Shown: positions 22-31,606 of the stretch, piece after piece
Layout of the letters: every line of letters begins with the position of its first letter
How positions within the stretch are numbered: the stretch's first letter is position 1
NCBI GenBank assembly: GCA_965224465.1
Contig: OZ245049.1
Span: 2,670,001-2,702,000 of the forward strand
Direction of reading: 5' to 3'
DNA from: Flavobacteriaceae bacterium
GTDB lineage: Bacteria > Bacteroidota > Bacteroidia > Flavobacteriales > Flavobacteriaceae
DNA: 32,000 bases
Made by a program: the position numbers and the translations under genes
The notes under the pieces: model-generated
The model's database searches: none
Told to the model about the DNA's origin: nothing
Seen by the model: only the letters and a program-made list of their open reading frames with translations

Positions 22-1488
22 ATGAACTGGATGCTATTCCTATCATCTTTAGTTATTGTATTCTTATTAGGATTACTAGTATCTACAATTACAGAACGCA
101 AAGTAGAGGCTAGATTTGCCTATACTCCGGTAAACAACATTAATAAATTAGAACCAAGAAACGAAGTTTGGGGAGAAAATTTCCCTCGTGAATTTCAATC
201 TTACTACAAAACAGCAGACACAACTTTTAGGTCTAAATACAACGGTAACGCTGTAATAGACATGCTAGAAGTAGATCCTAGACTGGTTGTTTTATGGGCT
301 GGTTATGGTTTTTCTAAAGATTATAATCAAGGACGTGGACATGTGTATGCCATTGACGACATCCGTAACACCTTAAGAACTGGTGGACCAAAAGGCAAAA
401 AGGACGGACCAATGCCTGCTACGTGTTGGACCTGTAAATCTCCAGATGTTCCCCGTTATATCAACGAAAACGGAACCGACAAATACTATAGTGGTAAATG
501 GGCTGGTAAAGGAGAAGAATTCGTAAACCCAATAGGATGTGCGAACTGTCATGATGAAAAAAGCATGAACTTAACCATTACTCAACCTGCATTAATTGAA
601 GCTTTTGAGCGTCAAGGAAAAGACATTACCAAAGCATCTCATAACGACATGCGTTCATTAGTATGTGCACAATGTCACGTAGAATATTACTTTAACAAAC
701 ACCTACCAGGAAAAGAAGGAATTCCTTATCTAGTATTCCCTTGGGATGAAGGACAAACTGTTGAGGACATGGAAAAATACTATGACAATATAGGCCATGT
801 AGACTGGACACATAAAATAAGTAGAGCTCCAATGTTAAAAGCACAACACCCAGGATATGAAACTTTCCAAATGGGGATTCATGGTAAACGTGGTGTTTCT
901 TGTGCAGATTGTCACATGCCTTATAAAACAGAAGGTGGACAGAAATTTACAGATCACCATATCCAATCTCCATTAAACAACGTGGCAAACTCTTGTCAGG
1001 TATGTCACCGTGAAGAAACAAAAGAATTGATTCAGAATGTATATGACAACCAAGATCGCATCATTGGAAATAGAGATCAATTGGAACGCTTGTTAGTTCG
1101 TGCACACGTTGAAGCAGGTAAATGTTGGGATTTAGGTGCTACAGAAGCACAAATGAAAGACATCTTACACGGTATTCGTAGTGGACAATGGCGTTGGGAT
1201 TACGCTGCTGCATCACATGGAGGATCTTTCCATGCTCCAGTAGAATTAGGTCGTGTAATTGGTACAGGTATTGATATAACTCAAGAAACCAGAATCAAAC
1301 TAGCAAAATTGTTGATGACATTAGGATTCAAAGGGGATGTTCCTTATCCAGATATCTCAACAAAAGAAAAAGCACAGAAATATATTGGATTGCCAATGGA
1401 AAAATTAAGAGCTGAAAAAGCAACATTCTTAAAAGAATTGGCTCCACAATGGGACGCTGCAGCTAAAGAACGCGAAAGTAAGTACTAA
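22..1488 (+). CDS. nrfA: Pentahaem cytochrome c nitrite reductase (ammonia-forming) NrfA
   Basis: 488-aa ORF with an N-terminal hydrophobic anchor. It has the CXXCK motif CWTCK, diagnostic of the NrfA active-site haem, plus four CXXCH motifs (CANCH, CAQCH, CADCH, CQVCH). Confidence 0.93.
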   Translation: MNWMLFLSSLVIVFLLGLLVSTITERKVEARFAYTPVNNINKLEPRNEVWGENFPREFQSYYKTADTTFRSKYNGNAVIDMLEVDPRLVVLWAGYGFSKDYNQGRGHVYAIDDIRNTLRTGGPKGKKDGPMPATCWTCKSPDVPRYINENGTDKYYSGKWAGKGEEFVNPIGCANCHDEKSMNLTITQPALIEAFERQGKDITKASHNDMRSLVCAQCHVEYYFNKHLPGKEGIPYLVFPWDEGQTVEDMEKYYDNIGHVDWTHKISRAPMLKAQHPGYETFQMGIHGKRGVSCADCHMPYKTEGGQKFTDHHIQSPLNNVANSCQVCHREETKELIQNVYDNQDRIIGNRDQLERLLVRAHVEAGKCWDLGATEAQMKDILHGIRSGQWRWDYAAASHGGSFHAPVELGRVIGTGIDITQETRIKLAKLLMTLGFKGDVPYPDISTKEKAQKYIGLPMEKLRAEKATFLKELAPQWDAAAKERESKY

Positions 1489-5319: not shown

Positions 5320-5480
5320 ATACCAAACACATTTCCAAGTGACGGTTTAAAAATGGAATTACATTTTTGTTTTAGATAGGCGAAAGATTTAAGGACGGCC
5401 TTGCTATCGTTCTCTTTTTCAACAACGCTAGAACGTAAAACAAACTATTTATAGCTGTTATTTTGGATTGTATTTGGCAT
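5320..5480 (-). repeat. MITE-like intergenic repeat, copy A (full length, inverted orientation)
   Basis: The reverse complement reads atgccaaatacaatccaaaataacagctataaatagtttgttttacgttctagcgttgttgaaaaagagaacgatagc...ccgtcacttggaaatgtgtttggtat. It shares the core and both termini with copies at 8411, 18601, 19811, 27335, 27446 and 31531. Confidence 0.8.
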
Positions 5481-7544: not shown

Positions 7545-8444
7545 ATGAGTTCAACAAAAAAACAAACCATCTCCTTAGTCCTTGGAAGTGGAGGCGCGAG
7601 AGGAATGGCACATGTAGGAGTTATCCGATGGCTAGAAGCCCATAATTTTGAAATTAAAGCCATTTCAGGTTGTTCTATTGGAGCGGCTATTGGAGGCGCC
7701 TATGCGATGGGGAATTTGGACCAATTTGTAGATTGGCTAGACAAATACAAACGAAGCGATATGTATTATATGATCGATTTTATGTTTGGAAAAGGAGGTT
7801 TTGTAAAAGGCGATAAAGTAATGGAAAGGATCAAAACACAAATAGGTACAGATTTGATAGAAAACCTTCCGATCAAATTTACGGCAGTCGCTGCAGACAT
7901 ATATAATGAAGAGGAAGTTTGGTTGTCTAAAGGCCCTTTATGTGAAGCTATTAGAGCCTCCATTTCATTGCCCTTATTTTTTACGCCTTACGAATTGAAT
8001 GGCATCAAACTATTGGATGGAGGCATTTTAAACCCTACACCTATAGAACCAACCTTAACCGATGGAACGGACCTTACAATTGTGGTAAATTTGGGAGGTG
8101 CTCCTGAAGTGAAAATACCCAAAAAAATTGCACAAAAAGACCCTTGGCAGCGCACCTTAGATGTCTATATCAATAAGATGAAAAAATACCGCAACAAAAC
8201 ATCTAACGAATGGAGCATGATGTACATTGCAGATCAGTCTTTTAATGCCATGCAAAATACCATCGCGCAGCAAAAAATGAAAATGTACCCACCAGACTAT
8301 GTCATCAATATCCCTAGAAACAAATGCAATACCTTGGAATTTGAAAAATCTGCAGAAATGATTGCTTATGGCTATGAAATGGCAGAGAAAATAGTAGGTA
8401 AACATAGTGTACCAATTACCATCCAAAGGGATCTCAATAAGTAG
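7545..8444 (+). CDS. Patatin-like phospholipase (RssA/NTE-like)
   Basis: Oxyanion motif GSGGARG, nucleophile elbow GCSIGA (GXSXG) and the catalytic Asp motif LLDGG. The last 11 codons and the stop lie inside repeat copy B. Confidence 0.85.
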   Translation: MSSTKKQTISLVLGSGGARGMAHVGVIRWLEAHNFEIKAISGCSIGAAIGGAYAMGNLDQFVDWLDKYKRSDMYYMIDFMFGKGGFVKGDKVMERIKTQIGTDLIENLPIKFTAVAADIYNEEEVWLSKGPLCEAIRASISLPLFFTPYELNGIKLLDGGILNPTPIEPTLTDGTDLTIVVNLGGAPEVKIPKKIAQKDPWQRTLDVYINKMKKYRNKTSNEWSMMYIADQSFNAMQNTIAQQKMKMYPPDYVINIPRNKCNTLEFEKSAEMIAYGYEMAEKIVGKHSVPITIQRDLNK

Positions 8445-8524
8445 TTTATTTTACGTTCTAGCGTTGTTAAAAAACAGAAAATAATTCCATTTCTTAACCG
8501 TCACTTAGAAGTTGTATTTGGTAT
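8411..8524 (+). repeat. MITE-like intergenic repeat, copy B (internally deleted)
   Basis: accaattaccatccaaagggatctcaataagtagtttattttacgttctagcgttgttaaaaaacag...ccgtcacttagaagttgtatttggtat. It lacks the gatagc/gctatc hairpin module. Confidence 0.75.
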
Positions 8525-17435: not shown

Positions 17436-18425
17436 TAGGGTTACCCTCTTAAGTCGCAATATATTTGATTGATTTATAGGCTATTGGTTTTTCTTTACAC
17501 ATTCTTTTTAGTAGGTTTTCTAAGATGTTTTCTCTAAAATTGAGTCGATTAAATCGATAGAAATACTCTTGAATGTATTGATTTATATACTCTTTCTCAC
17601 AATACGAATGAACGCCTCTTAACCAATTTTTAAAGTTTCTTATCTGAAAATGTAGCATCTTAAAATTCTCACCATTATTAGATAATATTTGTGTTAAATT
17701 TGGGAAGTTCTTTTTTAAAGGTTTATATCCTGACCAGCCATCTGTAACTATATTGGCATCAAACTTTATATGTTTCTCAAATATTGGTTTTAATGATTTG
17801 CAACTATAATCTTCTATCACCTTTGCGTATGCTCTGCCTGGTTTACCATTTCTATTTTCAATGGCAATTACAACTCTAATTTTAGTAGCTGATTTACTAC
17901 GTCCTTGCTCTCCTTTTTTTGGTGTACCTATTTCAAACTCGTCTACATGAACTTCTTTTTCTAAAGGATATTTCTCACTACTTTTCATTGCTTCTTGTAC
18001 TTTTCTTCTAAACAACCAAGCTGTCATCTGTTTAACACCGTGCCTTTCTGCTAACCAAATACTATTCGCTCCTTTCTTACTGGTAACTATATCATAAGTC
18101 ATTTCAAAGGCTTCTACAATACCAAATTTAACTTTATGAAATAGAGTGTTCGCAGTTGGAGACTCATCATATCCGCATTTTGTACAACGTCTATTATACG
18201 CTCTTTTTCCTTTTAAAAACTTTGTGTTTTTACATTTAAAACAGGAAAAACCTTCTTCCCATTTTACAGATGATAAAAAAGATAAACATAAACTCTCTTC
18301 TCCAAACTTAGTGTGAAATTCTTTACGAGATAATTCTTTTAATATTTTCATAGCTTTCTTTTTCTAAAAGTAAAAAATCCTTTCAGAAAAACAAAATATT
18401 AGTGAGATTTAAATAGGTAACCCTA
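17436..18425 (-). mobile_element. IS1595-family insertion sequence (990 bp) with intact target-site duplication
   Basis: Terminal inverted repeats tagggttacc... (17436) and ...ggtaacccta (18425). They are perfect for 10 bp, and by hand count about 19 of 26 positions match. They are flanked by the 8-bp direct repeat aaaaagta at 17428-17435 and 18426-18433. One transposase ORF lies inside. Confidence 0.85.
17449..18351 (-). CDS. IS1595-family (ISXO2-like) DDE transposase with N-terminal zinc ribbon
   Basis: N-terminal CxxC...CxxC zinc ribbon (CFKCKN...CTKCGY), then a DDE-type core (HVDEFEIG...IVTDGWSGY...). The length of 300 aa is typical. Confidence 0.88.
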   Translation of the reverse strand: MKILKELSRKEFHTKFGEESLCLSFLSSVKWEEGFSCFKCKNTKFLKGKRAYNRRCTKCGYDESPTANTLFHKVKFGIVEAFEMTYDIVTSKKGANSIWLAERHGVKQMTAWLFRRKVQEAMKSSEKYPLEKEVHVDEFEIGTPKKGEQGRSKSATKIRVVIAIENRNGKPGRAYAKVIEDYSCKSLKPIFEKHIKFDANIVTDGWSGYKPLKKNFPNLTQILSNNGENFKMLHFQIRNFKNWLRGVHSYCEKEYINQYIQEYFYRFNRLNFRENILENLLKRMCKEKPIAYKSIKYIAT

Positions 18426-18600
18426 AAAAAGTAATTATAAAAACCCTAACTCCATGTTCCTTCTCATTTTAAAATGTATCAAAAACAGGTATTGATATCT
18501 TATGGAGACACAATAGAAATTATCCCTACAGAACTAGAGAAGTTATTTTTCAGAATTCTGATCATAAAAAAAACAGTTTGGTAGCTAAGCGGATCTCTTA

Positions 18601-18749
18601 CACCAATTACAATCCAAAATAACCAATATAAGAAGTTTGTTTTACGTTCTAGCGTAGTTAAAAAACAAAACGATAGCTAAGCTATTCATTCATTTTCCGA
18701 CTAGCTATAATACCAATTATAGACCATCACTTAGAAATGTATTTGGTAT
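18601..18749 (+). repeat. MITE-like intergenic repeat, copy C (full length)
   Basis: caccaattacaatccaaaataaccaatataagaagtttgttttacgttctagcgtagttaaaaaacaaaacgatagctaagctatt...ccatcacttagaaatgtatttggtat. Confidence 0.8.
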
Positions 18750-18759
18750 AAAAACTTCA

Positions 18760-19810: not shown

Positions 19811-19932
19811 ATGCCAATTACAAGCCAAAATGACCGATATAAATGGTTTATTATACGTTCTAGCGTTGTTGAAAAACAGAACGATAGCGAAAGCTATCCT
19901 TCCATCTTTCACCTAGCTATAATACCTATAAT
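19811..19932 (+). repeat. MITE-like intergenic repeat, copy D (right end missing)
   Basis: atgccaattacaagccaaaatgaccgatataaatggtttattatacgttctagcgttgttgaaaaacagaacgatagcgaaagctatcc...ctagctataata. It abuts the stop codon of the OmpA-like gene. Confidence 0.75.
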
Positions 19933-23656: not shown

Positions 23657-23727
23657 CCAACCAAACCGCTACTTTAGATTAAAAAACAATTCTATTTCTA
23701 AACTGTCTCTTGGGAATGTGTTGATAT
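23657..23727 (+). repeat. Right-end fragment of the MITE-like repeat (F-type variant), copy H
   Basis: ccaaccaaaccgctactttagattaaaaaacaattctatttctaaactgtctcttgggaatgtgttgatat. It shares a 29-nt perfect block (23675-23703) with 27552-27580. Confidence 0.6.
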
Positions 23728-24056
23728 AAGAGTATTTGTTGCATAAAACGTAATATAAAAAAGTCAACATCTACAAAAAATATTTCAGGACATTACCCCT
23801 AACAGAGAATCAAGTTGAAAACACTCTTTAAAAATAGAATTTCACAGCAAACAAACAACAGACTACAACTAGATGACTCCTTGACATCTACTCCTTCATA
23901 AAGACACGCTACGATACAAATATTCAATCGAAAAGGCAATCAAACAGCGAACGATCTAAAATAATCCAATCAATAAGCTGTACTATAAGGTATTACCGAT
24001 ACATCCGCTCTAACGGTTAAAACTATAATAAAAATAGTGCACATAACATTATTTTG

Positions 24057-24242: not shown

Positions 24243-24950
24243 ATGAGCAGTTTTAAAGGCATTGCCAAAATAGACGGAAAAGAAAGAAATTTATTAAGAG
24301 CCGAATACACATTATACAAATTACGAGACATCACTGGAAATCCAACTACATCCACTCGCAAAACACCAATTCAATTAATGTTTGAATCAACTGGATTTGA
24401 TGACGACTTGTACTATTATATGTTTTCAGCGAATGCTAGTTTTAGCGGAGAGTTACTTTTTTATGACCGAGATGGATTAAAAACACTGTATAAAGTAGAG
24501 TTTCATAACGCTTACATTATAGGGCTTACTGAAGAATTCAACCACGAAGACAATTTACCTTTACACATTAAATTATCTATAACCTGTGGTGCCGTTAAAA
24601 TAAAAGGAGTTAAAAAATTAGAAAACTGGGTATTTAACGACCCTTTTGTAAATATTAAAGAAACGAAACTTGAAAGAAAAGAAGAACCACATTTGATTGA
24701 TTTCTATTACGTAGACACAGAAAACAACAGGGAACCCAAACTAACCTACGGAGATGAAATTTATTTAATTGTAGAAAGTCAAGGGATGATTGGAGATACG
24801 GTAGATTTAAAACTCAATGACAAAACACTAGACTTTACATACAAAGGAAACCGTCTTAAAAACGACACTATTGAAGATTACAAAATAAGAACTAACAGAG
24901 ATAAAATATCTCTTACAGTAATTGAAGAAGATAACGAAGAATTAGAATAA
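24243..24950 (+). CDS. tssD: Bacteroidota-type T6SS tube protein Hcp/TssD with a ~100-aa C-terminal extension
   Basis: Residues 1-~128 follow the Bacteroidales/Flavobacterial TssD pattern: F-x-A-x-L-x-x-x-GKE-x-x-L, Y-x-L-x-x-D-x-x-G-x-P, ESTxxD, an F-x-x-xD block, E-F-x-N-A-Y-I, then P-L-x-I-x-L-S-I and IKI-G-x-x-x-x-NW. Canonical TssD ends around there, but this ORF continues for about 100 more residues. Confidence 0.72.
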   Translation: MSSFKGIAKIDGKERNLLRAEYTLYKLRDITGNPTTSTRKTPIQLMFESTGFDDDLYYYMFSANASFSGELLFYDRDGLKTLYKVEFHNAYIIGLTEEFNHEDNLPLHIKLSITCGAVKIKGVKKLENWVFNDPFVNIKETKLERKEEPHLIDFYYVDTENNREPKLTYGDEIYLIVESQGMIGDTVDLKLNDKTLDFTYKGNRLKNDTIEDYKIRTNRDKISLTVIEEDNEELE

Positions 24951-24951
24951 A

Positions 24952-25278
24952 ATGAACGAAAATAAATTTCAAATAATATACAAAGGCAAGGTAGAAAAAG
25001 AAATTTCTATTCAACTTCAAGACATCGATCGAGAAATAAAAGAACAACAAAAAGGGACTAACTATACTCGTGTAAACGAAGAAGGCACAACTTTAATGCA
25101 GGTGAAACATGAATTTATAAATATTGGTGAAAGTTTTGCTCAAATAAAATACAATACCTCTGCTACAATAACAGAAAGAGGTACGGTTGTAGTAAGCCAG
25201 TTTAAACAAGAGATTACATCAAGAGAGAAGAAGTTTGGTACTACAAGAATTCAAACGGGAATTTTGAAGGCTCATTAA
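24952..25278 (+). CDS. Small hypothetical protein (possible effector adaptor or chaperone, or the N-terminal part of the downstream toxin)
   Basis: 108-aa ORF whose ATG lies one nucleotide after the Hcp stop. No signal peptide, no TM and no recognised motif. Its 3' end overlaps an open upstream extension of the next ORF. Confidence 0.5.
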   Translation: MNENKFQIIYKGKVEKEISIQLQDIDREIKEQQKGTNYTRVNEEGTTLMQVKHEFINIGESFAQIKYNTSATITERGTVVVSQFKQEITSREKKFGTTRIQTGILKAH

Positions 25279-25367
25279 CTGAAGCTAAACTAGCATTTCC
25301 AGATGTAGATTTTAAAGAATTAAAACAACCCGAAATAGGAAATATAGATCATAGAGAATATGATCAC

Positions 25368-26117
25368 ATGCAAATCAATCCTATCTTACAGCCTTTAACA
25401 TGGGAAACTATTAACGAATATGACGGAGAAAAACAAGGCGGACCAACAACTTGGGAGAAATGGGCAGACGCAACACAGATAGCTTTAGATGTTGTAGGAA
25501 TGATTCCTGCTGTAGGAGAAATAGCAGATTGTATTAATGGAGTTATTTCATTAGCCAGAGGTAATTATGCCGATGCAGCATTAAGTTTTGCCGCAATGAT
25601 TCCTTTTTTCGGAACTGGAGCAACTATAGCAAAACAAGTAAGAAAACTTAAAAAGATAGTTAATCTCGAAAATGCTAAAGGTGTTTACGATATAATTGTA
25701 AAAAACGGAGAAGAAATTCAAGGTGTTTACGACTTAATTATCAAAAACGCAGAAGATGCTCAAGGGTATGTTGGGCAATCTAAAAATATTTTTCAGCGCT
25801 TTACACAACATTTTAACCCTAAAAGAGGTAAATTGGCTCATAAAGTTATAGAGAATGGTTCCGTAATTCATAAAATGGCTGGATCTACCAAATTAGAACG
25901 CGAAATGTATGAACAGTTCGTGATTTTAGAAAAATATGGAGGAGACATTACTAAAAAAGGGAATAGCGAGCTTCATAAACTTTTAAACAAAGTAAATCCT
26001 GTTGGCGGTAGGTTTGATTTAAAATCAAAAACAGGACGAGAATTATTTGATGAAAAAGCATTAAAAATTGCAAAAAAATATAATTTACCAACAACATTTG
26101 ACCCTATACTATTTTAA
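25368..26117 (+). CDS. Polymorphic-toxin-type effector: pre-toxin TG (PT-TG) domain plus a GIY-YIG (URI-type) nuclease domain
   Basis: PT-TG-like segment: ALDVVGMIPAVGEIADCINGVISLARGNYADAALSFAAMIPFFGTGATIAK (two hydrophobic helices and a TG motif). C-terminal GIY-YIG pattern: GVYDL-x12-YVGQS-x6-R-x3-H ... LEREMYEQ ... LLNKVNP. Confidence 0.6.
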   Translation: MQINPILQPLTWETINEYDGEKQGGPTTWEKWADATQIALDVVGMIPAVGEIADCINGVISLARGNYADAALSFAAMIPFFGTGATIAKQVRKLKKIVNLENAKGVYDIIVKNGEEIQGVYDLIIKNAEDAQGYVGQSKNIFQRFTQHFNPKRGKLAHKVIENGSVIHKMAGSTKLEREMYEQFVILEKYGGDITKKGNSELHKLLNKVNPVGGRFDLKSKTGRELFDEKALKIAKKYNLPTTFDPILF

Positions 26118-26119
26118 CT

Positions 26120-27001
26120 ATGTACTTATCAGGCTTTAAAGACGCTCCCTATTTAATGATAAAACCAAATTCAGATTTAGATAACATTAATCCAGATTTC
26201 CTAAAAGACAAATACACGATCAGACTGTCTGGTAAATTTGATGATTTATTTTTGAAAAAATTCAACAAAATCTATAAAAATATTTCTAATTTGGATATCG
26301 GAAACCAATATGGAGATGGAGATAATTCATTTATTTATCAACTAATAAATTTAAAAGGTCTCGTTATTTCACTATATAAAGATTCAAGTTTTATTTTAGA
26401 TTGCAGTAAACTTCCAAAATCACTGTATTCATTACATTTACAAGTTTATTCAAAAAAAAACATACTTAATATTGAAGCTTTAAATAAAACAGATTTACAA
26501 CACCTAACAATTTCAGATTACGACGAAAAAGACCTGACAAAATTAAGTAGCTTAACGCATTTAAAAAGTTTAAGTTTTAAAACTGCTAAAATAAAATCAT
26601 TAAAAGGCATTGAACCATTAAGCAATCTTACATGTCTTTCTTTTGGAGGAGTAAGAAGCCTTACAGATATCTCACAAATAACAACTTTACAAAAACTAAA
26701 ATATCTAGAATTTGATATTTGTTGGAAATTAGAAGATTTCAGTCCCATAGGAAATATTAAAGAGCTGGAAGTTTTAGAACTTATGGATTGTAAAAACTTA
26801 GCTTCTATTAAATTTGTAAAGGCAACACATAAGTTGAGGCAACTATACACTTTAGGCACAACAATAATTAATGATTTTGACACAACTCCCGCTGAAAACA
26901 TTCCTATTTATTTTGGAAGTCGTGCTTCAAAAAAATACAATCAAGAATACCCCGATAAAGAAATAAAAGAAGGACAAAAATCTTGGAGTAACTATTTGTA
27001 A
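26120..27001 (+). CDS. Cytoplasmic leucine-rich-repeat protein (candidate cognate immunity protein)
   Basis: About 7 tandem LRR units of roughly 22 aa (LTHLKSLSFKTAKIKSLKGIEPLSNLTCLSFGGVRSLTDISQITTLQKLKYLEFDICWKLEDFSPIGNIKELEVLELMDCKNL). No signal peptide. The ATG is 2 nt after the toxin stop. The LRR call is firm; the immunity role is inferred. Confidence 0.65.
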   Translation: MYLSGFKDAPYLMIKPNSDLDNINPDFLKDKYTIRLSGKFDDLFLKKFNKIYKNISNLDIGNQYGDGDNSFIYQLINLKGLVISLYKDSSFILDCSKLPKSLYSLHLQVYSKKNILNIEALNKTDLQHLTISDYDEKDLTKLSSLTHLKSLSFKTAKIKSLKGIEPLSNLTCLSFGGVRSLTDISQITTLQKLKYLEFDICWKLEDFSPIGNIKELEVLELMDCKNLASIKFVKATHKLRQLYTLGTTIINDFDTTPAENIPIYFGSRASKKYNQEYPDKEIKEGQKSWSNYL

Positions 27002-27334
27002 CGAGAACAAAACATAGCTCCTAAAAACTAAAATAGAAACGGCTTATTCCTGTTTCACATACAATCATAAAAAAAAGACAATAAAACGAGAATTTATCCA
27101 TAAAATAACTCAAAACAAACAGACACTATTACACACCACAAGGCATTTGGAGAGGGAAGTTACTTCCCTCCTGACGGATATGGTTTAGAAAAAAACTCCA
27201 AATAAACAATATAAATAATTCTGGTATTCTACACTATTGGCCAGTAAAATACGCAGCATTCACTTTTATCAAAATACAACATACAATCGTTTTTTTTTGC
27301 GCTATATAAAAAACAAAACTCTCCAAACAAATAA

Positions 27335-27445
27335 CACCAATTACAATTCAAAATAACCGATATAATTAGGTTGTTTTACGTTCTAGCGTTGTTGAAAAAC
27401 AGAACGATAGCTACGGCTATCCATCCATTCCCCGCCTAACTATAA
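27335..27445 (+). repeat. MITE-like intergenic repeat, copy E (first of a head-to-tail pair, right end missing)
   Basis: caccaattacaattcaaaataaccgatataattaggttgttttacgttctagcgttgttgaaaaacagaacgatagctacggctatccatccattccccgcctaactataa. Confidence 0.8.
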
Positions 27446-27605
27446 CACCAATTAAAATTCAAAATGACAGATATAAATAGTTTATTTTACGTTCTATCGT
27501 TCTTAAAAAATAGAACGACAGCTACGGCTATCCATCCATTCCCCGCCTAACTAGATTAAAAAACAATTCTATTTCTAAACCTTCACTTGGGGATGTATTT
27601 GGCAT
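27446..27605 (+). repeat. MITE-like intergenic repeat, copy F (full length, variant right arm)
   Basis: caccaattaaaattcaaaatgacagatataaatagtttattttacgttctatcgttcttaaaaaatagaacgacagctacggctatcc...ctagattaaaaaacaattctatttctaaaccttcacttggggatgtatttggcat. Confidence 0.8.
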
Positions 27606-27701
27606 AAGAGATAAGACAAGAACAATCATGAATAAATAACCTATTAAATCAATTCATTCTTTTTAGAATCCCTAAATTTGTTTGATATAAAAACAAGACA
27701 C

Positions 27702-28978
27702 ATGGATAAATCTTCTCAAGAGTTATTAGCATTTATAGATAAAAGCAGCACTTCGTTTCACGCAGTAGATGTGATACAAAAAAAACTAGACACCTTAGAC
27801 TACGAGCAACTTATAGAAACCGAAAAGTGGCATATTTCTGCGAACTCAAAATATTATATCACGCGAGCAGACGGTTCATTATTGATGATTCATACTCCAA
27901 AAAATATCAGCAAGTCAAACCCATTTAAGATGATTGGTGCGCATACCGATTCTCCTTGTTTAAAAGTAAAAAGCAACCCTACTTCTATAAAATCGGGCTA
28001 TTGCATGCTAAACGTAGAAGTTTATGGAGGTGTTTTACTCAGCAGTTGGTTTGACAAAGACATCCAAATAGGAGGTCGTGTTTTTACTGAAAACAAGGCA
28101 GGGGAATTAAAAAGTCACCTCATCACTTTACCCTATAAATTACGCATTCCTCGCTTGGCAATACATTTAGACAGGGAGGTAAACAAAGCAGGTTTTAAAA
28201 TCAACGCGCAGGAACACGTGTTCCCTATTATGGGATTAGACACCAGCATTTCTTTTGACAAATTACTATTAAAAGAGATAACAAACAGCGATGGTCTCAC
28301 TATTTTAAGTACCGATTTGTTTTTATTTGATGCCCAAGCATCCAGTTTTGGAGGAGTCGAAAACGAATTTATTTACGCACCTCGATTGGATAATTTATCA
28401 AGTACACACGCTGCATTGGAATCGTTAAAAACACAAGATTTCCACCATGATAATTTTCAAGTAGCTGTATTTTTTCAGCATGAAGAAATTGGTTCTAAAA
28501 GTCAAAACGGAGGAGACTCCAACTTTTACAAGTGAGTTTAAATCGAATTACCAGTGCTTTGGACTGGAAAAACGAAGACTTCTCACAGTCCATGGCTAAA
28601 TCGTATTTTATTTCTGCAGACATGGCACATGCAGTACACCCGAATTATGCAGAAAAACACGATAAAAACCACCAACCACATATAAACAAAGGACTTGTAA
28701 TCAAAGCCAATGCCAATATCCGATACGCTACTGATGCGTTTTCTATTGCAAAATTCAAGCAATGGTGTCACAAAGCCGGCGTTTCCTACCAAGATTTCTG
28801 TTCTAGAAACGATGTAGGCTGTGGATCTACCATAGGCCCTATGACGGCTTCAAAACTAGGAGTAGCCACTATAGATATCGGAAATCCAATGCTTTCCATG
28901 CACAGTATTCGTGAAATGGCAGGAAGCAAAGACCACGGAGAATTAATTAAAGTTTTCAATGTTTTTTACAAGAGTTAA
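27702..28978 (+). pseudogene. apeB: M18-family aspartyl aminopeptidase, interrupted by a -1 frame break
   Basis: Two ORFs overlap by 4 nt (27678-28535 frame 0, 28532-28978 frame 2). Together they rebuild a ~430-aa M18 aminopeptidase (HTDSPCLKVK, EEIGS..., MHSIREM). The break is at a T4 run (28524-28527), and one extra T would give ...GGDSNFLQVSLNRI... The probable true start is the ATG at 27702. Confidence 0.8.
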
Positions 28979-29212: not shown

Positions 29213-30301
29213 TTAATCACCAAACAACAAAAACAAGCCTCCAATCACTGTAATTCCAGCCAGTACGGCAAAGAATATTTTCCAGTAAGAAACAGGATTA
29301 TCTCCTGTAATTTTACCGTTTTCTCCATTGATAAAAAAGGAATACAACTTCCCGTTATAACGATAACTGCTTCTATAAACAGGCAACAAAATATGCTTAA
29401 AACTTTCGTCCTCCAAAGTAATGGCTGCTTGGTGTATTTGTTGCGTATCACCACCTATATCTTGTCGAATCCATCGATGGGCAATCTGTTTTGCTTGTTT
29501 AAAAGAGGCTTTATGCCCTTCTTTTAAAGAAACGGTGTATTTTTCTGTAACAAATCCATTCAAAAATTGCTGATGAAATGGTTGCAGCTTTTTTAAATCC
29601 CATCCATAAATACGTTTAGGAATCTGATTTTTCCTTTCAACAGTAGCACTTACCAAAATATCATCTACAAAACCTTTAACACTTCCAGACGCAGAAGACC
29701 AGCTAGTTTTTCGCACCTGCTGCCTCTTTGTGCCTTTGGATGTTTTTACAGTTCTTGTCTCATAATAGTAATCGCCACGCATGCCCTTATAAAGAGCGCT
29801 CAAATTAGCATCAAAAGTCCAGAACGGTACATATAAACCCTGGAGTTTCTCAGGATCTAATACAGCTTTTTTTAATTTGTTAGGCACAAACCACAAGCTA
29901 TTGATCCATTTAAAAAACAGTTGACGAGATTGCGTTTTATCAATTTGAAAAGGCAAGACAGCGCCGGGCATAATCCAACCTTCTTTATGTACGTCCTCTA
30001 CCATCAAAGGCTCATTACAGTACACACAACTTAAACTTTTAAAACGTTCTTGTACATGTTGATTTGAGCCACAACTCTTGCATTTGATCAAGTCTATTTT
30101 ATCTGTAAAAGCATTGTCGCCCACCACTTTTAAATAGTGCGTTAACTCAAGTTCTTCAAAACTGGTTTTTGACTGCTCTATAAATTCTTCATAGCCACAA
30201 TACGCACATTCTAATTGCGTACTCCCTGGCTTAAAAGCAAGGGCTGCACCGCAATCGGCACAGCTCTTTTTAATTGCTGTATTTTTAATTTCGTCTTGCA
30301 T
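29213..30301 (-). CDS. Double zinc-ribbon, C-terminally membrane-anchored protein (YdjG-like)
   Basis: Two CxxC-N(14-17)-CxxC ribbons (CADCG...CAYCG and CKSCG...CVYCN). One C-terminal TM helix (YWKIFFAVLAGITVIGGLFLLFG). It lies 19 bp downstream of the SPFH gene. Confidence 0.5.
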   Translation of the reverse strand: MQDEIKNTAIKKSCADCGAALAFKPGSTQLECAYCGYEEFIEQSKTSFEELELTHYLKVVGDNAFTDKIDLIKCKSCGSNQHVQERFKSLSCVYCNEPLMVEDVHKEGWIMPGAVLPFQIDKTQSRQLFFKWINSLWFVPNKLKKAVLDPEKLQGLYVPFWTFDANLSALYKGMRGDYYYETRTVKTSKGTKRQQVRKTSWSSASGSVKGFVDDILVSATVERKNQIPKRIYGWDLKKLQPFHQQFLNGFVTEKYTVSLKEGHKASFKQAKQIAHRWIRQDIGGDTQQIHQAAITLEDESFKHILLPVYRSSYRYNGKLYSFFINGENGKITGDNPVSYWKIFFAVLAGITVIGGLFLLFGD

Positions 30302-31530: not shown

Positions 31531-31606
31531 TACCAGCAATTACAATCCAAAATGATCGATATAAATGATTTATTTTACGTTGTATCGTTGTTCAAAAACA
31601 GACCAC
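31531..31606 (+). repeat. MITE-like intergenic repeat, copy G (left half only, degenerate)
   Basis: taccagcaattacaatccaaaatgatcgatataaatgatttattttacgttgtatcgttgttcaaaaacaga... Confidence 0.55.

Follow-up and report, generated by a model that had tools for sequence, protein, structure and literature searches.

A three-gene Hcp-led locus of a Flavobacteriaceae bacterium is probably an auxiliary T6SSiii effector/immunity module

A compact locus in the 32-kb stretch of Flavobacteriaceae DNA analyzed here (the window) is likely to be an auxiliary, or satellite, T6SSiii module, in which an Hcp protein with a C-terminal adaptor domain (CTD) would deliver a GIY-YIG effector and an LRR protein would confer immunity. 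We infer CTD-effector binding, secretion, nuclease toxicity, and immunity. An earlier note on this DNA had proposed an orphan, Hcp-led cassette of four genes, an auxiliary effector/immunity module of the Bacteroidota T6SS(iii) situated away from the core locus. The sequence score and fold of the Hcp protein and the synteny observed in Tenacibaculum caenipelagi support the auxiliary module. The positions of the four same-strand ORFs (24243-24950, 24952-25278, 25368-26117, and 26120-27001) and the gaps of 1, 89, and 2 nt between them are likewise exact, but the second and third ORFs constitute one effector gene, whose homologues are single proteins of 375-385 aa. Read in this way, the locus comprises three genes, not four, encoding Hcp/TssD, the effector, and the LRR protein (Table 1). 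As in other auxiliary effector-immunity modules, hcp heads a gene order that continues with effector and immunity genes, the module lies outside the core cluster, and synteny is conserved.

Table 1. Features of the locus and its flanks (positions are those of the window).
Feature	Position	Strand	Basis or remark
Dispersed intergenic repeat of ~160 nt, partial copy to the left of the cassette (3' 59 nt)	23675..23732	+	
Hcp/TssD gene, 235 aa	24243..24950	+	Pfam, AF2 model, Foldseek
T6SSiii-type tube-protein barrel, Hcp residues 1-130	24243-24632	+	Pfam TssD
Disordered Hcp linker, residues ~124-148			AF2: residues 124-145 with pLDDT below 50
Hcp C-terminal beta-sandwich domain (CTD), 87 aa, residues ~149-235	24687-24947	+	CTD-only model
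Effector gene, about 387 aa if repaired, split in two ORFs (24952-25278, 25368-26117)	24952..26117	+	Homologues, tblastn
Effector N-terminal region, family-specific module	24952..25330	+	12 representatives; putative binding target of the Hcp CTD
Frameshift site, 1-nt deletion	25225..25226	+	Two bases left where homologues have the Gly92 codon (AGA-G[G]A-GAA-GAA)
Pre-toxin linker module (LDVVGMIPAVGEIADCINGVISLARGNYADAALSFAAMIPFFG, internal two-fold repeat)	25476..25640	+	Common to other toxins
42-nt (14-aa) tandem duplication of the GVYD.I.KN..E.Q strand	25678..25761	+	Directly before the YVG motif
GIY-YIG (URI) nuclease toxin domain	25720..26114	+	Pfam, conserved residues, structure
LRR protein, 293 aa, probable cognate immunity protein	26120..27001	+	LRR matches, synteny; neutralization presumed
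Full copy of the dispersed intergenic repeat to the right of the cassette, with a tandem duplication of its 111-nt 5' unit	27331..27625	+	

By sequence score and predicted fold, the product of the first gene is a genuine T6SSiii Hcp/TssD. Residues 3-130 matched the Pfam TssD model PF17642 with an E-value of 2.4e-24 and 86.1 bits (cut-off 25.8), covering positions 2-128 of the 128 profile positions and leaving about 105 extra residues at the C-terminus. When the AF2 model of the full protein (pLDDT 72) was compared by Foldseek, the best match was F. johnsoniae Hcp1 (6bdc, TM 0.75), followed by B. fragilis Hcp (8gra and 7yw0), all three with a probability of 1.0 and TM values of 0.71-0.75. Profile search and fold comparison, the checks named in the earlier note, both confirmed its assignment of this ORF to Hcp/TssD with an additional C-terminal domain. 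A model of the CTD alone displayed six strands (pLDDT 84, pTM 0.71). No PDB relative of this model scored better than E 0.13, and residues 131-235 had no match in Pfam, NCBIfam, or PADLOC. Classification as an evolved Hcp (Hcp-ET) was rejected because this part of the protein has no toxin-domain match and the toxin is encoded separately downstream.

The effector homologues share 50-74% identity with the interrupted effector. In a tblastn search with one of them (P0002), residues 6-91 mapped to 24967-25224 and residues 93-377 to 25227-26114. Since only two bases (25225/25226) separate the two segments, one base of the Gly92 codon is missing, and in a three-frame translation ...FKQEITSR carries on as EEVWYYKNS... 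in the adjacent frame. The 108-aa protein that had been listed as a separate unknown is, therefore, the effector N-terminus, severed by a 1-nt deletion. No other lesion was found in the effector; both halves are open and conserved, with 73-79% identity to intact homologues, leaving a single lesion in about 1160 nt. As sequenced, the cassette cannot yield a loadable toxin, and if the frameshift is real the window copy may be inactive; its Hcp and immunity genes are intact. The N-terminal region of the effector follows the pattern TN..VNEEGT.L.QVKHEF.NVGES.AQ.K...VSQFKQE..SRGEEVWYYKNS.GTFEGTL..A..AFPDVDF and has only 12 representatives among 1.84 billion proteins, all of which bear the same toxin except for one truncated paralogue of 188 aa.

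The segment upstream of the toxin recurs at 50-75% identity in proteins whose C-terminal toxin domain is Colicin D, AHH, HNH-EHHH, or DUF7587, and in an RHS tip. The label PT-TG previously given to it was not sustained: neither the window segment nor 8 proteins sharing it matched Pfam PT-TG (PF14449) at E<=10, a threshold at which HMMER filters may still hide very weak matches, and the 'TG' of the window copy (FGTGAT) is not conserved among homologues. Judged by its sequence relatives, the segment still behaves like a pre-toxin module. The toxin domain scored 27.7 bits against GIY-YIG (PF01541; cut-off 22.6), and GVY, YVG, R191, H195, E226/E229, and N254 are invariant across 14 family members and intact in the window copy, in line with the GIY-YIG-like character suggested earlier. 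The catalytic Tyr/Tyr/Arg/Glu/Asn set is thereby complete. Its closest solved structure is the I-TevI catalytic domain (1mk0, E 0.008). The same toxin forms the C-terminal tip of an RHS protein (P0095), as expected for a polymorphic-toxin module combined with differing trafficking parts. The 14-aa duplication is found in the window copy only. As it adjoins the GIY motif, it could reduce nuclease function. The catalytic core is probably unaffected, as the second copy keeps the normal YVG spacing. Among the PADLOC defense models, the GIY-YIG segment matched PDC-S14/UzuA at the level of the motif (~15-21 bits); Hcp, the second ORF, and the LRR protein had no match, and no cassette protein had a system-level match.

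The fourth ORF scored 40.1 bits against LRR_14 (cut-off 40) and resembles internalins (E 4e-11; internalin A in the PDB, E 1.7e-21). No hydrophobic signal segment could be read at its N-terminus, consistent with the signal-less LRR protein described beforehand. The gene starts 2 nt downstream of the toxin, and its product is 77-79% identical to proteins at the same position in Tenacibaculum and 52% identical to the one in Aquimarina. At all eight loci examined an LRR gene is located downstream, after the toxin at L001, L002, L004, L005, L017, L018, and L019 and after a toxin remnant at L009; it is also retained beside toxin remnants at L005 and L019. Because the gene holds this position at every locus, even beside remnants, the LRR protein is probably the cytoplasmic immunity protein that would neutralize the GIY-YIG toxin.

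Pfam scans of all substantial ORFs detected no T6SS core gene within the 32-kb window, as the earlier note had stated, and no sheath, baseplate, or phage genes near the cassette. The remaining ORFs encode NrfA/cytochrome c biogenesis proteins, LysR, AhpC/AhpF, patatin, an M16 peptidase, SusC/SusD/DUF4929, an IS1595 transposase, an oxidoreductase, OmpA, an amino-acid permease, DUF3817, an SPFH protein, and an M18 aminopeptidase. The gene of the latter neighbors the cassette and has likewise lost 1 nt, in a T run, so that the Pfam match falls into halves 1-284 and 289-432. The compositionally odd setting reported before was also observed: the GC content of the cassette and its flanks is 0.25-0.34, compared to about 0.36 for the window, with A at 0.41-0.46 and G at 0.11 in the flanks. 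A 48-nt direct repeat flanking the cassette turned out to be part of the dispersed intergenic repeat of ~160 nt, which occurs in about 8 copies in the window, has no family match in Rfam, and has a weak RNA fold (z = -1.6). Given this abundance and dispersal, the flanking repeats were rejected as island ends or as a specific insertion signature. The argument for horizontal acquisition drawn earlier from the odd flanks is weakened, as the flanking DNA is mostly genome-wide dispersed repeat; mobility is better supported by the mosaic nature of Hcp and by the resemblance of CTD, effector, and LRR protein between genera. Elsewhere in the source organism, other Hcp paralogues are disrupted by a mobile repeat (L016).

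Cassettes of this type are physically linked to a T6SSiii apparatus in related bacteria. In Tenacibaculum caenipelagi, an Hcp-CTD, effector, and immunity cassette is positioned directly at the 3' end of the T6SSiii core cluster (ClpV, TssN, TssK, TssO, and TssR), and at L006/L007 genes for Hcp-CTD, effector, and a TPR-protein directly follow ClpV-TssN-TssK-TssO-TssO-PKD-TssR. A TssN (PF17555) protein, P0140, was found on a contig that by its length (5,241,564 bp) and sources matches that of the window's proteins, the only core protein seen there; on this match, absence of a T6SS from the genome, which the note had given as a refutation, is contradicted by one protein. That contig encodes at least seven further Hcp-CTD paralogues and, hence, at least eight Hcp-CTD products in all. 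The order Hcp, effector, LRR is kept in Tenacibaculum (L001, L004, and L005) and in Aquimarina and relatives (L002 and L019). At L017/L018, the effector follows another effector/immunity-like pair, and no Hcp gene is present within 10 kb upstream. Adjacency to Hcp is, thus, not universal, which counts against the explanation as a satellite Hcp module.

Comparison across loci revealed the Hcp to be a mosaic. The window barrel is 78-83% identical to that of same-clade Hcps with CTDs of only 22-40% identity, while the window CTD is 57-59% identical to that of Hcps with barrels of 20-23% identity. Across 16 loci, grouping by CTD and grouping by effector give exactly the same clusters, which cut across those of the barrel. 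Many of these loci are orthologous sites in one genus, and they represent few independent swaps: at least two cross-clade cases, plus one barrel clade bearing four CTD types. At L006/L007 the CTDs are 98% identical and the effectors alike only over residues 1-293; at L013/L014 the CTDs are 96% identical and the effectors alike only over residues 1-192. As judged from these alignments, CTD type tracks the effector N-terminal region, not the toxin and not the Hcp barrel. Between L001 and L009, identity is ~90% as far as Hcp codon ~169 and returns to that level at effector codon 271, and L001 and L013 diverge at the same Hcp position, which by sequence comparison places the recombination junctions in the Hcp linker. 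The related genomes suggest that CTD and toxin were swapped as one. Against the explanation counts that the CTD of the Aquimarina type shares only 30-38% identity with the window CTD although the effectors share 52-54%.

Under the proposed mechanism, the Hcp would presumably be able to join the host tube, because its barrel matches the host's own Hcp family. The CTD would act as an effector-specific adaptor that recognizes the effector N-terminal region, and the effector would be loaded via the CTD onto or into the Hcp ring and fired into a neighboring cell, where its GIY-YIG nuclease would degrade the DNA. In the producer, the cytoplasmic LRR protein would neutralize the nuclease. The exchanged unit would consist of the Hcp CTD, the effector, and the immunity protein, recombined onto a constant barrel at the Hcp-linker junction, an arrangement resembling a polymorphic toxin system spread over two genes. 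More tentatively, and with slightly less than an even chance in our estimation, Flavobacteriia may possess a two-gene, Hcp-based polymorphic toxin system as a whole. CTD and effector N-terminal region would then form a portable lock and key that moves between genera with toxin and immunity gene by recombination in the Hcp linker, while the lineage-specific barrel remains constant and at least eight cassettes in one genome, some of them disrupted, serve as an exchangeable arsenal.

Other explanations differ in which part of this proposal they affect. The window copy might be a decaying or defensive relic, with a real deletion and an effector pseudogene, that keeps LRR immunity against kin still firing the toxin together with a spare Hcp. 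We regard this as a serious possibility but lean against it. The deletion at 25225/25226 interrupts the effector frame, a restart from 25368 within the gene would yield a protein without the N-terminal region, and both the toxin remnants beside intact LRR genes (L009, L005, and L019) and the disrupted Hcp paralogues (L016) are in accordance with decay. Against this stand the restriction to one lesion within well-conserved open halves and the 1-nt loss in the T run of the nearby M18 aminopeptidase gene, which is typical of assembly indel errors. A relic would concern the functional state of the window copy and is compatible with the identity of the module.

That the CTD is something other than a cargo adaptor appears unlikely. 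It might be a small effector or binding domain of an 'evolved' or specialized Hcp, a lumen plug or ring-stacking modifier marking a minor tip Hcp, or a recombination hitch-hiker. Evolved Hcps whose C-terminal extensions are functional exist in both Bacteroidales and Enterobacteria (PMC4714493, PMC13213661), a 534-aa Hcp fusion is encoded at locus L015, and a fixed recombination junction alone would link CTD and effector. However, the CTD is a beta-sandwich of 87 aa without similarity to toxins or enzymes, a separate large effector is always next after it, and CTD type follows the effector N-terminal region even where the toxin end was exchanged. In addition, CTDs keep 57-72% identity between genera in which barrel identity has dropped to about 20%, pointing to selection on a matched pair. 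A locus unrelated to T6SS is highly improbable, be it a phage tail-tube gene, its counterpart in an extracellular contractile injection system, or an anti-phage defense or toxin-antitoxin pair of GIY-YIG nuclease and LRR sensor beside an Hcp-like gene. Foldseek also matched PVC/AFP tube proteins (ranks 6-14), the L004 cassette adjoins a type I restriction-modification system, and the PDC-S14/UzuA matches at the GIY-YIG motif reach about 20 bits. Yet the closest matches in sequence and fold are T6SSiii Hcps, the neighborhood is devoid of sheath, baseplate, and phage genes, a cassette of this type directly adjoins a T6SSiii core cluster, PADLOC recognized no system, and both the pre-toxin module and the toxin recur in polymorphic toxins, RHS proteins among them.

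Cargo selection by Hcp is under active study, and recent structures show effector N-terminal regions held inside Hcp rings. If Flavobacteriia do possess the two-gene system, an adaptor domain added to Hcp could set its effector specificity from outside the ring lumen, a mode undescribed in the literature searched. From the comparative pattern, Flavobacteriia are predicted to rely on a modular arrangement in which the domain added to Hcp matches the effector N-terminus. It would explain how large effectors (about 43 kDa) are recruited and how a foreign toxin/immunity cassette becomes usable by the host T6SS with the tube-forming barrel unchanged. As a rule for finding new T6SSiii effectors, the ORF after any TssD of ~235-270 aa would be the candidate in Flavobacteriia from marine or host-associated settings, among them the fish-pathogen genus Tenacibaculum. 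A GIY-YIG/LRR toxin-immunity pairing is added. For the window itself the message is more modest, a recognizable T6SS satellite module with an effector gene that is interrupted in the available sequence.

The locus resembles auxiliary hcp-effector-immunity modules and the GA2/GA3 cassettes of Bacteroidales T6SSiii, such as B. fragilis Hcp2-Hcp3 with Bte1, in which hcp is directly upstream of the cargo effector and immunity genes. Shared with these cassettes are an effector N-terminal loading region followed by a variable C-terminal toxin, Hcp-effector specificity, multiple Hcp paralogues, and a position off or at the edge of the core cluster. In B. fragilis, effector N-terminal regions bind minor Hcp rings, and variable effector cassettes adjoin hcp genes (PMC13035841, PMC13213661). 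These effectors bind inside rings of Hcps lacking a CTD, which counts against the CTD as adaptor. In contrast to the Bacteroidales cassettes, Hcps of the window type carry a non-toxin beta-sandwich of ~87 aa after a disordered linker, the CTD and not the lineage-specific barrel co-varies with the effector N-terminal region, and the modules lie scattered, with at least eight on one contig, instead of forming a cluster in the T6SS locus. The literature searched contained no account of a domain like this. With Hcp-ET the locus shares a barrel with a polymorphic C-terminal extension and a downstream immunity gene; however, this extension lacks similarity to toxins or enzymes and is too small for a typical toxin, and the toxin is a separate downstream protein. 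C-terminal adaptor domains of VgrG, for example transthyretin-like extensions, confer effector specificity. By analogy, the CTD is a small C-terminal appendage rich in beta structure that varies in step with the neighboring effector and presumably binds it, although it sits on Hcp and has no fold match to TTR domains.

Tox-URI (GIY-YIG) toxins and Imm-LRR immunity proteins have already been catalogued (Zhang et al. 2012, PMC3482391), with Tox-URI1/2 accompanied by Imm9/12/14/26/39/44/51 and LRR immunity next to T5SS toxins. Hence, neither the toxin nor the immunity class is new. As in Tox-URI systems, a C-terminal GIY-YIG nuclease follows a pre-toxin module, the immunity gene is next, the toxin also occurs on RHS tips, and displaced remnants are present; the URI-LRR pairing via Hcp, in contrast, is absent from that catalogue. 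Finally, as in Rhs/CdiA-CT replacement, a constant trafficking part is combined with a toxin-immunity cassette exchanged at a fixed junction, and orphan toxin fragments occur beside immunity genes. Unlike in Rhs/CdiA-CT, the junction falls within the linker-coding part of the Hcp gene, and what varies is the CTD plus a whole second protein, a unit that reaches across a gene boundary.

The four ORFs of the cassette, all co-directional and separated by gaps of 1, 89, and 2 nt, were recovered at exactly the coordinates reported in an earlier note on this DNA (see table). In profile searches, the labels of that note held for TssD, GIY-YIG, and LRR but not for PT-TG, as the Pfam model does not match the segment concerned. 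ORF2 on its own matched no family. The note had counted four genes, one of them encoding a separate 108-aa protein of unknown function. We found three instead. Homologues of ORF3 are nearly all 375-385 aa long, ~130 aa longer than ORF3, and their N-termini match ORF2, identifying ORF2 as the N-terminus of the effector. Two consecutive segments of the Tenacibaculum effector homologue P0002 were aligned by tblastn to the region, and three-frame translation gave ...FKQEITSR followed by EEVWYYKNSNG... in the adjacent frame, where the homologues read SRGEEVWYYKNS. As the homologues cross the break in a single frame while the tblastn match occupies two, the Gly92 codon lacks one base. Judged by its homologues, the predicted effector gene of ~387 aa is thus split into two halves, ORF2 and ORF3, and the effector of the window copy is frameshifted as sequenced.

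Programmed frameshifting at position 25225 was rejected, since neither a slippery heptamer nor a long homopolymer occurs there and all homologues are single-frame. The 1-nt deletion, beyond which no further lesion was found in the effector gene, is either biological or an assembly error. An error is plausible because the adjoining M18 aminopeptidase gene, too, has lost 1 nt within a T run and is thereby divided into two overlapping ORFs whose Pfam matches cover positions 1-284 and 289-432 of 432. Taken together, the two frameshifts may reflect indel errors in the assembly or pseudogenisation in progress.

Positions of features in the window and in compared loci
Feature	Position	Strand	Basis or remark
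ORF1, Hcp/TssD gene	24243-24950	+	ORF call, Pfam TssD
ORF2, N-terminal part of effector	24952-25278	+	ORF call, homologue N-termini
ORF3, remainder of effector with GIY-YIG	25368-26117	+	ORF call, Pfam GIY-YIG
ORF4, internalin-like LRR protein	26120-27001	+	ORF call, LRR profile matches
Match to P0002 residues 6-91	24967-25224		tblastn
Match to P0002 residues 93-377	25227-26114		tblastn
42-nt tandem duplication	25678-25761		
~160-nt repeat copies	5320-5477, 8411-8479, 18600-18751, 19814-19905		
~160-nt repeat copies, further	23675-23732, 27331-27625, 31531-31602		
IS1595-family transposase	17449-18351		
Antisense 127-aa ORF	26518-26901	-	
M18 aminopeptidase	27678-28978		ORFs 27678-28535 and 28532-28978; T run near 28515-28535
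362-aa ORF	29213-30301		
~160-nt repeat in Hcp gene	L016 2331-2497		
ORF between Hcp and effector	L001 9395-9949; L004 10777-11343		P0119 in L004
Toxin remnant	L009 13488-13808		
Trailing toxin remnants with extra LRR genes or fragments	L005 13910-14203; L019 12095-13425		
534-aa ORF	L015 4324-5928		downstream ORFs to 11026
Neighbouring putative effectors	L017 8495-11227		

Residues 3-130 of ORF1 gave an end-to-end match to the Pfam TssD family (PF17642; E 2.4e-24; 86.1 bits, cut-off 25.8), leaving ~105 further residues without family assignment. In the AlphaFold2 model (pLDDT 72), the barrel and one helix comprise residues 1-121, followed by a disordered linker (residues 124-145, pLDDT <50) and a well-predicted all-beta C-terminal domain (CTD, residues 150-227). 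The best Foldseek matches in the PDB were Hcps of the Bacteroidota type VI secretion system (T6SSiii), namely Flavobacterium johnsoniae Hcp1 (6bdc, TM 0.75) and Bacteroides fragilis Hcp (8gra, 7yw0), with contractile-injection-system tube proteins and proteobacterial Hcps ranking below them; the assignment of ORF1 to TssD/Hcp was thereby corroborated. Modelled alone, the CTD formed a six-strand beta-sandwich (pLDDT 84, pTM 0.71). Foldseek returned no significant neighbour for it in the PDB, the top matches being generic beta-sandwiches (best E 0.13), and Pfam, NCBIfam, and PADLOC profile searches gave no sequence family. With neither a structural neighbour nor a family, the CTD was not regarded as the toxin extension of an 'evolved Hcp'.

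Barrel, CTD, and downstream effector were compared across 16 Hcp-led loci, many of which are orthologous and therefore represent few independent swap events. The window barrel shares 78-83% identity with the barrels of same-clade Hcps, the CTDs of which are just 22-40% identical to the window CTD. Conversely, the window CTD is 57-59% identical to that of Tenacibaculum Hcps with barrels only 20-23% identical, and these are the Hcps preceding the same GIY-YIG effector. Locus L003 combines a window-type barrel (78%) with the CTD of two other loci, L006 and L007 (71-72%), to whose effectors its own is homologous. Within Tenacibaculum, four unrelated CTD types, with one effector family per type, are found on barrels 96-99% identical to one another, and clusters of effectors and of CTDs coincide exactly across the 16 loci. 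Where near-identical CTDs accompany different toxins, the effectors are alike in their N-terminal regions only: over residues 1-293 in L006/L007 (CTDs 98% identical) and over residues 1-192 in L013/L014 (96%). The CTD therefore follows the N-terminal region of the effector rather than the toxin. When one chromosomal site was compared at the DNA level between two Tenacibaculum genomes, the break on the left fell at Hcp codon ~169, where linker and CTD meet, and that on the right within the effector, at codon 271. In a third genome, the break in Hcp has the same position.

Counter to a universal pairing with Hcp, the effector occurs without adjacent Hcp in L017 and L018. Neighbouring putative effectors in L017 (279 aa and a 408-aa GIY-YIG protein), also without adjacent Hcp, share the N-terminal motif MEKSF[ST]..[LM]GYKS.F, which may be an alternative targeting signal. 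Between Hcp and effector, L001 and L004 carry a 184-188-aa ORF, a paralogue 43% identical to effector residues 29-206 in which the toxin domain is absent. This ORF could be an accessory factor or what is left of an earlier effector. In L015, a 534-aa ORF has an Hcp-like N-terminus and may be an evolved Hcp with a long extension at its C-terminus; downstream of it lie five ORFs of ~220-247 aa plus a 147-aa ORF, a possible poly-immunity array.

The effector consists of an N-terminal region, a pre-toxin module, and a GIY-YIG domain. When 1.84 billion representatives were scanned in full with HMMER, the N-terminal region (~125 aa) was present in only 12 proteins, all bearing the same toxin bar one truncated 188-aa paralogue. 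The pre-toxin module, LDVVGMIPAVGEIADCINGVISLARGNYADAALSFAAMIPFFG, recurs at 50-75% identity in an RHS tip and in proteins of other phyla with a Colicin D, AHH, HNH-EHHH, or DUF7587 toxin domain at their end. By this distribution the segment behaves as a pre-toxin linker; the name PT-TG is unconfirmed. A GIY-YIG domain in ORF3, as proposed earlier, was confirmed by a Pfam score of 27.7 bits (cut-off 22.6) and by the motif residues GVY, YVG, R191, H195, E226/E229, and N254, which are invariant across the family and intact in the window copy. Among solved structures, its closest relative is the catalytic domain of I-TevI, and the same toxin forms the C-terminal tip of the RHS protein P0095. A 42-nt (14-aa) tandem duplication directly before the YVG motif (copies 81% identical) repeats the first GIY-YIG strand (GVYD.I.KN..E.Q) and is absent from every aligned homologue. 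A reading of the locus as a defence system was dismissed, PADLOC being negative.

ORF4 encodes an internalin-like LRR protein according to profile and structure-database matches and has no N-terminal hydrophobic segment, in agreement with its earlier description as signal-less. It is 77-79% identical to the proteins at the same position in Tenacibaculum and 52% in Aquimarina, and in every examined locus the LRR gene lies 3' of the toxin gene. An antisense 127-aa ORF within it is most likely spurious. In L009, a toxin remnant (residues 271-377, 86% identical) directly precedes an intact LRR gene 3' of a different effector. Similar trailing fragments occur in L005 and L019, with truncated GIY-YIG remnants and extra LRR genes or fragments, likewise downstream of other effectors. 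Displaced orphan toxin/immunity modules of this kind are found in Rhs and CDI loci, and the retention of remnant and LRR gene together argues that the LRR protein is probably the immunity protein of the GIY-YIG toxin.

The remainder of the window is ordinary Bacteroidota chromosome. Pfam scans identified NrfA and cytochrome c biogenesis, LysR, AhpC/AhpF, a patatin, an M16 peptidase, a SusC/SusD/DUF4929 set, an IS1595 transposase, an oxidoreductase, OmpA, an amino-acid permease, DUF3817, the M18 aminopeptidase, and an SPFH protein. The transposase gene has the SusC/SusD locus on one side and the oxidoreductase gene on the other, and local GC falls to 0.29-0.31. A 362-aa ORF beside the SPFH/GYF protein has several N-terminal CxxC pairs and a hydrophobic C-terminus and gave no Pfam match. 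As noted before, the ORFs of the 32-kb window include no T6SS core gene. In L006, from Tenacibaculum caenipelagi, and in L007, from a related MAG, genes for ClpV, TssN, TssK, two TssO, a PKD protein, and TssR are directly followed by an Hcp-CTD gene, its effector gene, and a TPR protein gene. A search with this TssN identified P0140, a TssN-family protein of 305 aa (E 5e-87, full coverage). Its contig matches that of all window proteins in length, exactly 5,241,564 bp, and in its two sources, and encodes at least eight distinct Hcp-CTD products. One core protein thus being found, the source replicon is predicted to encode T6SSiii machinery outside the window, and the refuting condition of the note, a genome devoid of T6SS, does not apply. 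Together with the T6SSiii-type Hcp and the core-adjoining cassettes, this renders the reading of the locus as a satellite effector/immunity module of T6SSiii essentially correct.

Compared with the window as a whole, cassette and flanks are AT-rich, the flanks being strongly A-rich and G-poor. This composition had been taken as a sign of acquisition, but the repeats in the flanks belong to a dispersed element rather than to a specific island boundary. A 48-nt direct repeat bracketing the cassette and a tandem repeat of 2 x 111 nt are pieces of one ~160-nt repeat with ~8 full or partial intergenic copies in the window, and the 48-nt repeat was therefore rejected as att sites or target duplications. 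A structured RNA was likewise discarded, as no Rfam family matched and the predicted fold was weak (z -1.6). In L016, a metagenomic contig with an exact copy of one Hcp paralogue of the window organism and two Transposase_mut genes, a copy of the ~160-nt repeat interrupts the Hcp barrel after codon ~24 and is flanked on either side by the duplicated 6-bp sequence TTATAC. The repeat thus acts as a MITE would, and it resembles a MITE or REP-like element belonging to the window genome; such insertion accounts for the 5'-truncated Hcp gene calls starting MVLYKLKDITG (P0111, P0112, P0113). No gene remnants were found in the long non-coding flanks, and a promoter/terminator consensus scan gave nothing exceeding shuffled expectation.

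We propose that the Hcp barrel would let the protein join the host tube, while the CTD would recognise the N-terminal region of the ~43-kDa effector and recruit it. After firing, the GIY-YIG nuclease would attack target DNA, and the LRR protein would shield the producer. The unit of horizontal exchange would be CTD, effector, and immunity gene, joined to a barrel already present in the host.

The toxin and immunity classes of the cassette are already known: GIY-YIG ('URI') toxins are an established polymorphic toxin class, and LRR immunity proteins are catalogued as Imm-LRR, without a URI toxin pairing in that catalogue (PMC3482391). The literature searched, the coverage of which was incomplete so that this is absence of evidence only, contained no account of an Hcp whose C-terminal domain is not a toxin and co-varies with cargo. 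The apparently cargo-matched CTD and the recombination junction may be considered moderately novel and merit experimental follow-up. In B. fragilis, hcp genes are adjoined by variable effector cassettes, and heterohexamers of minor Hcps are bound by effector N-terminal regions (PMC13035841, PMC13213661). The B. fragilis Hcps, however, have no appended domain, whereas the window Hcp carries the CTD.
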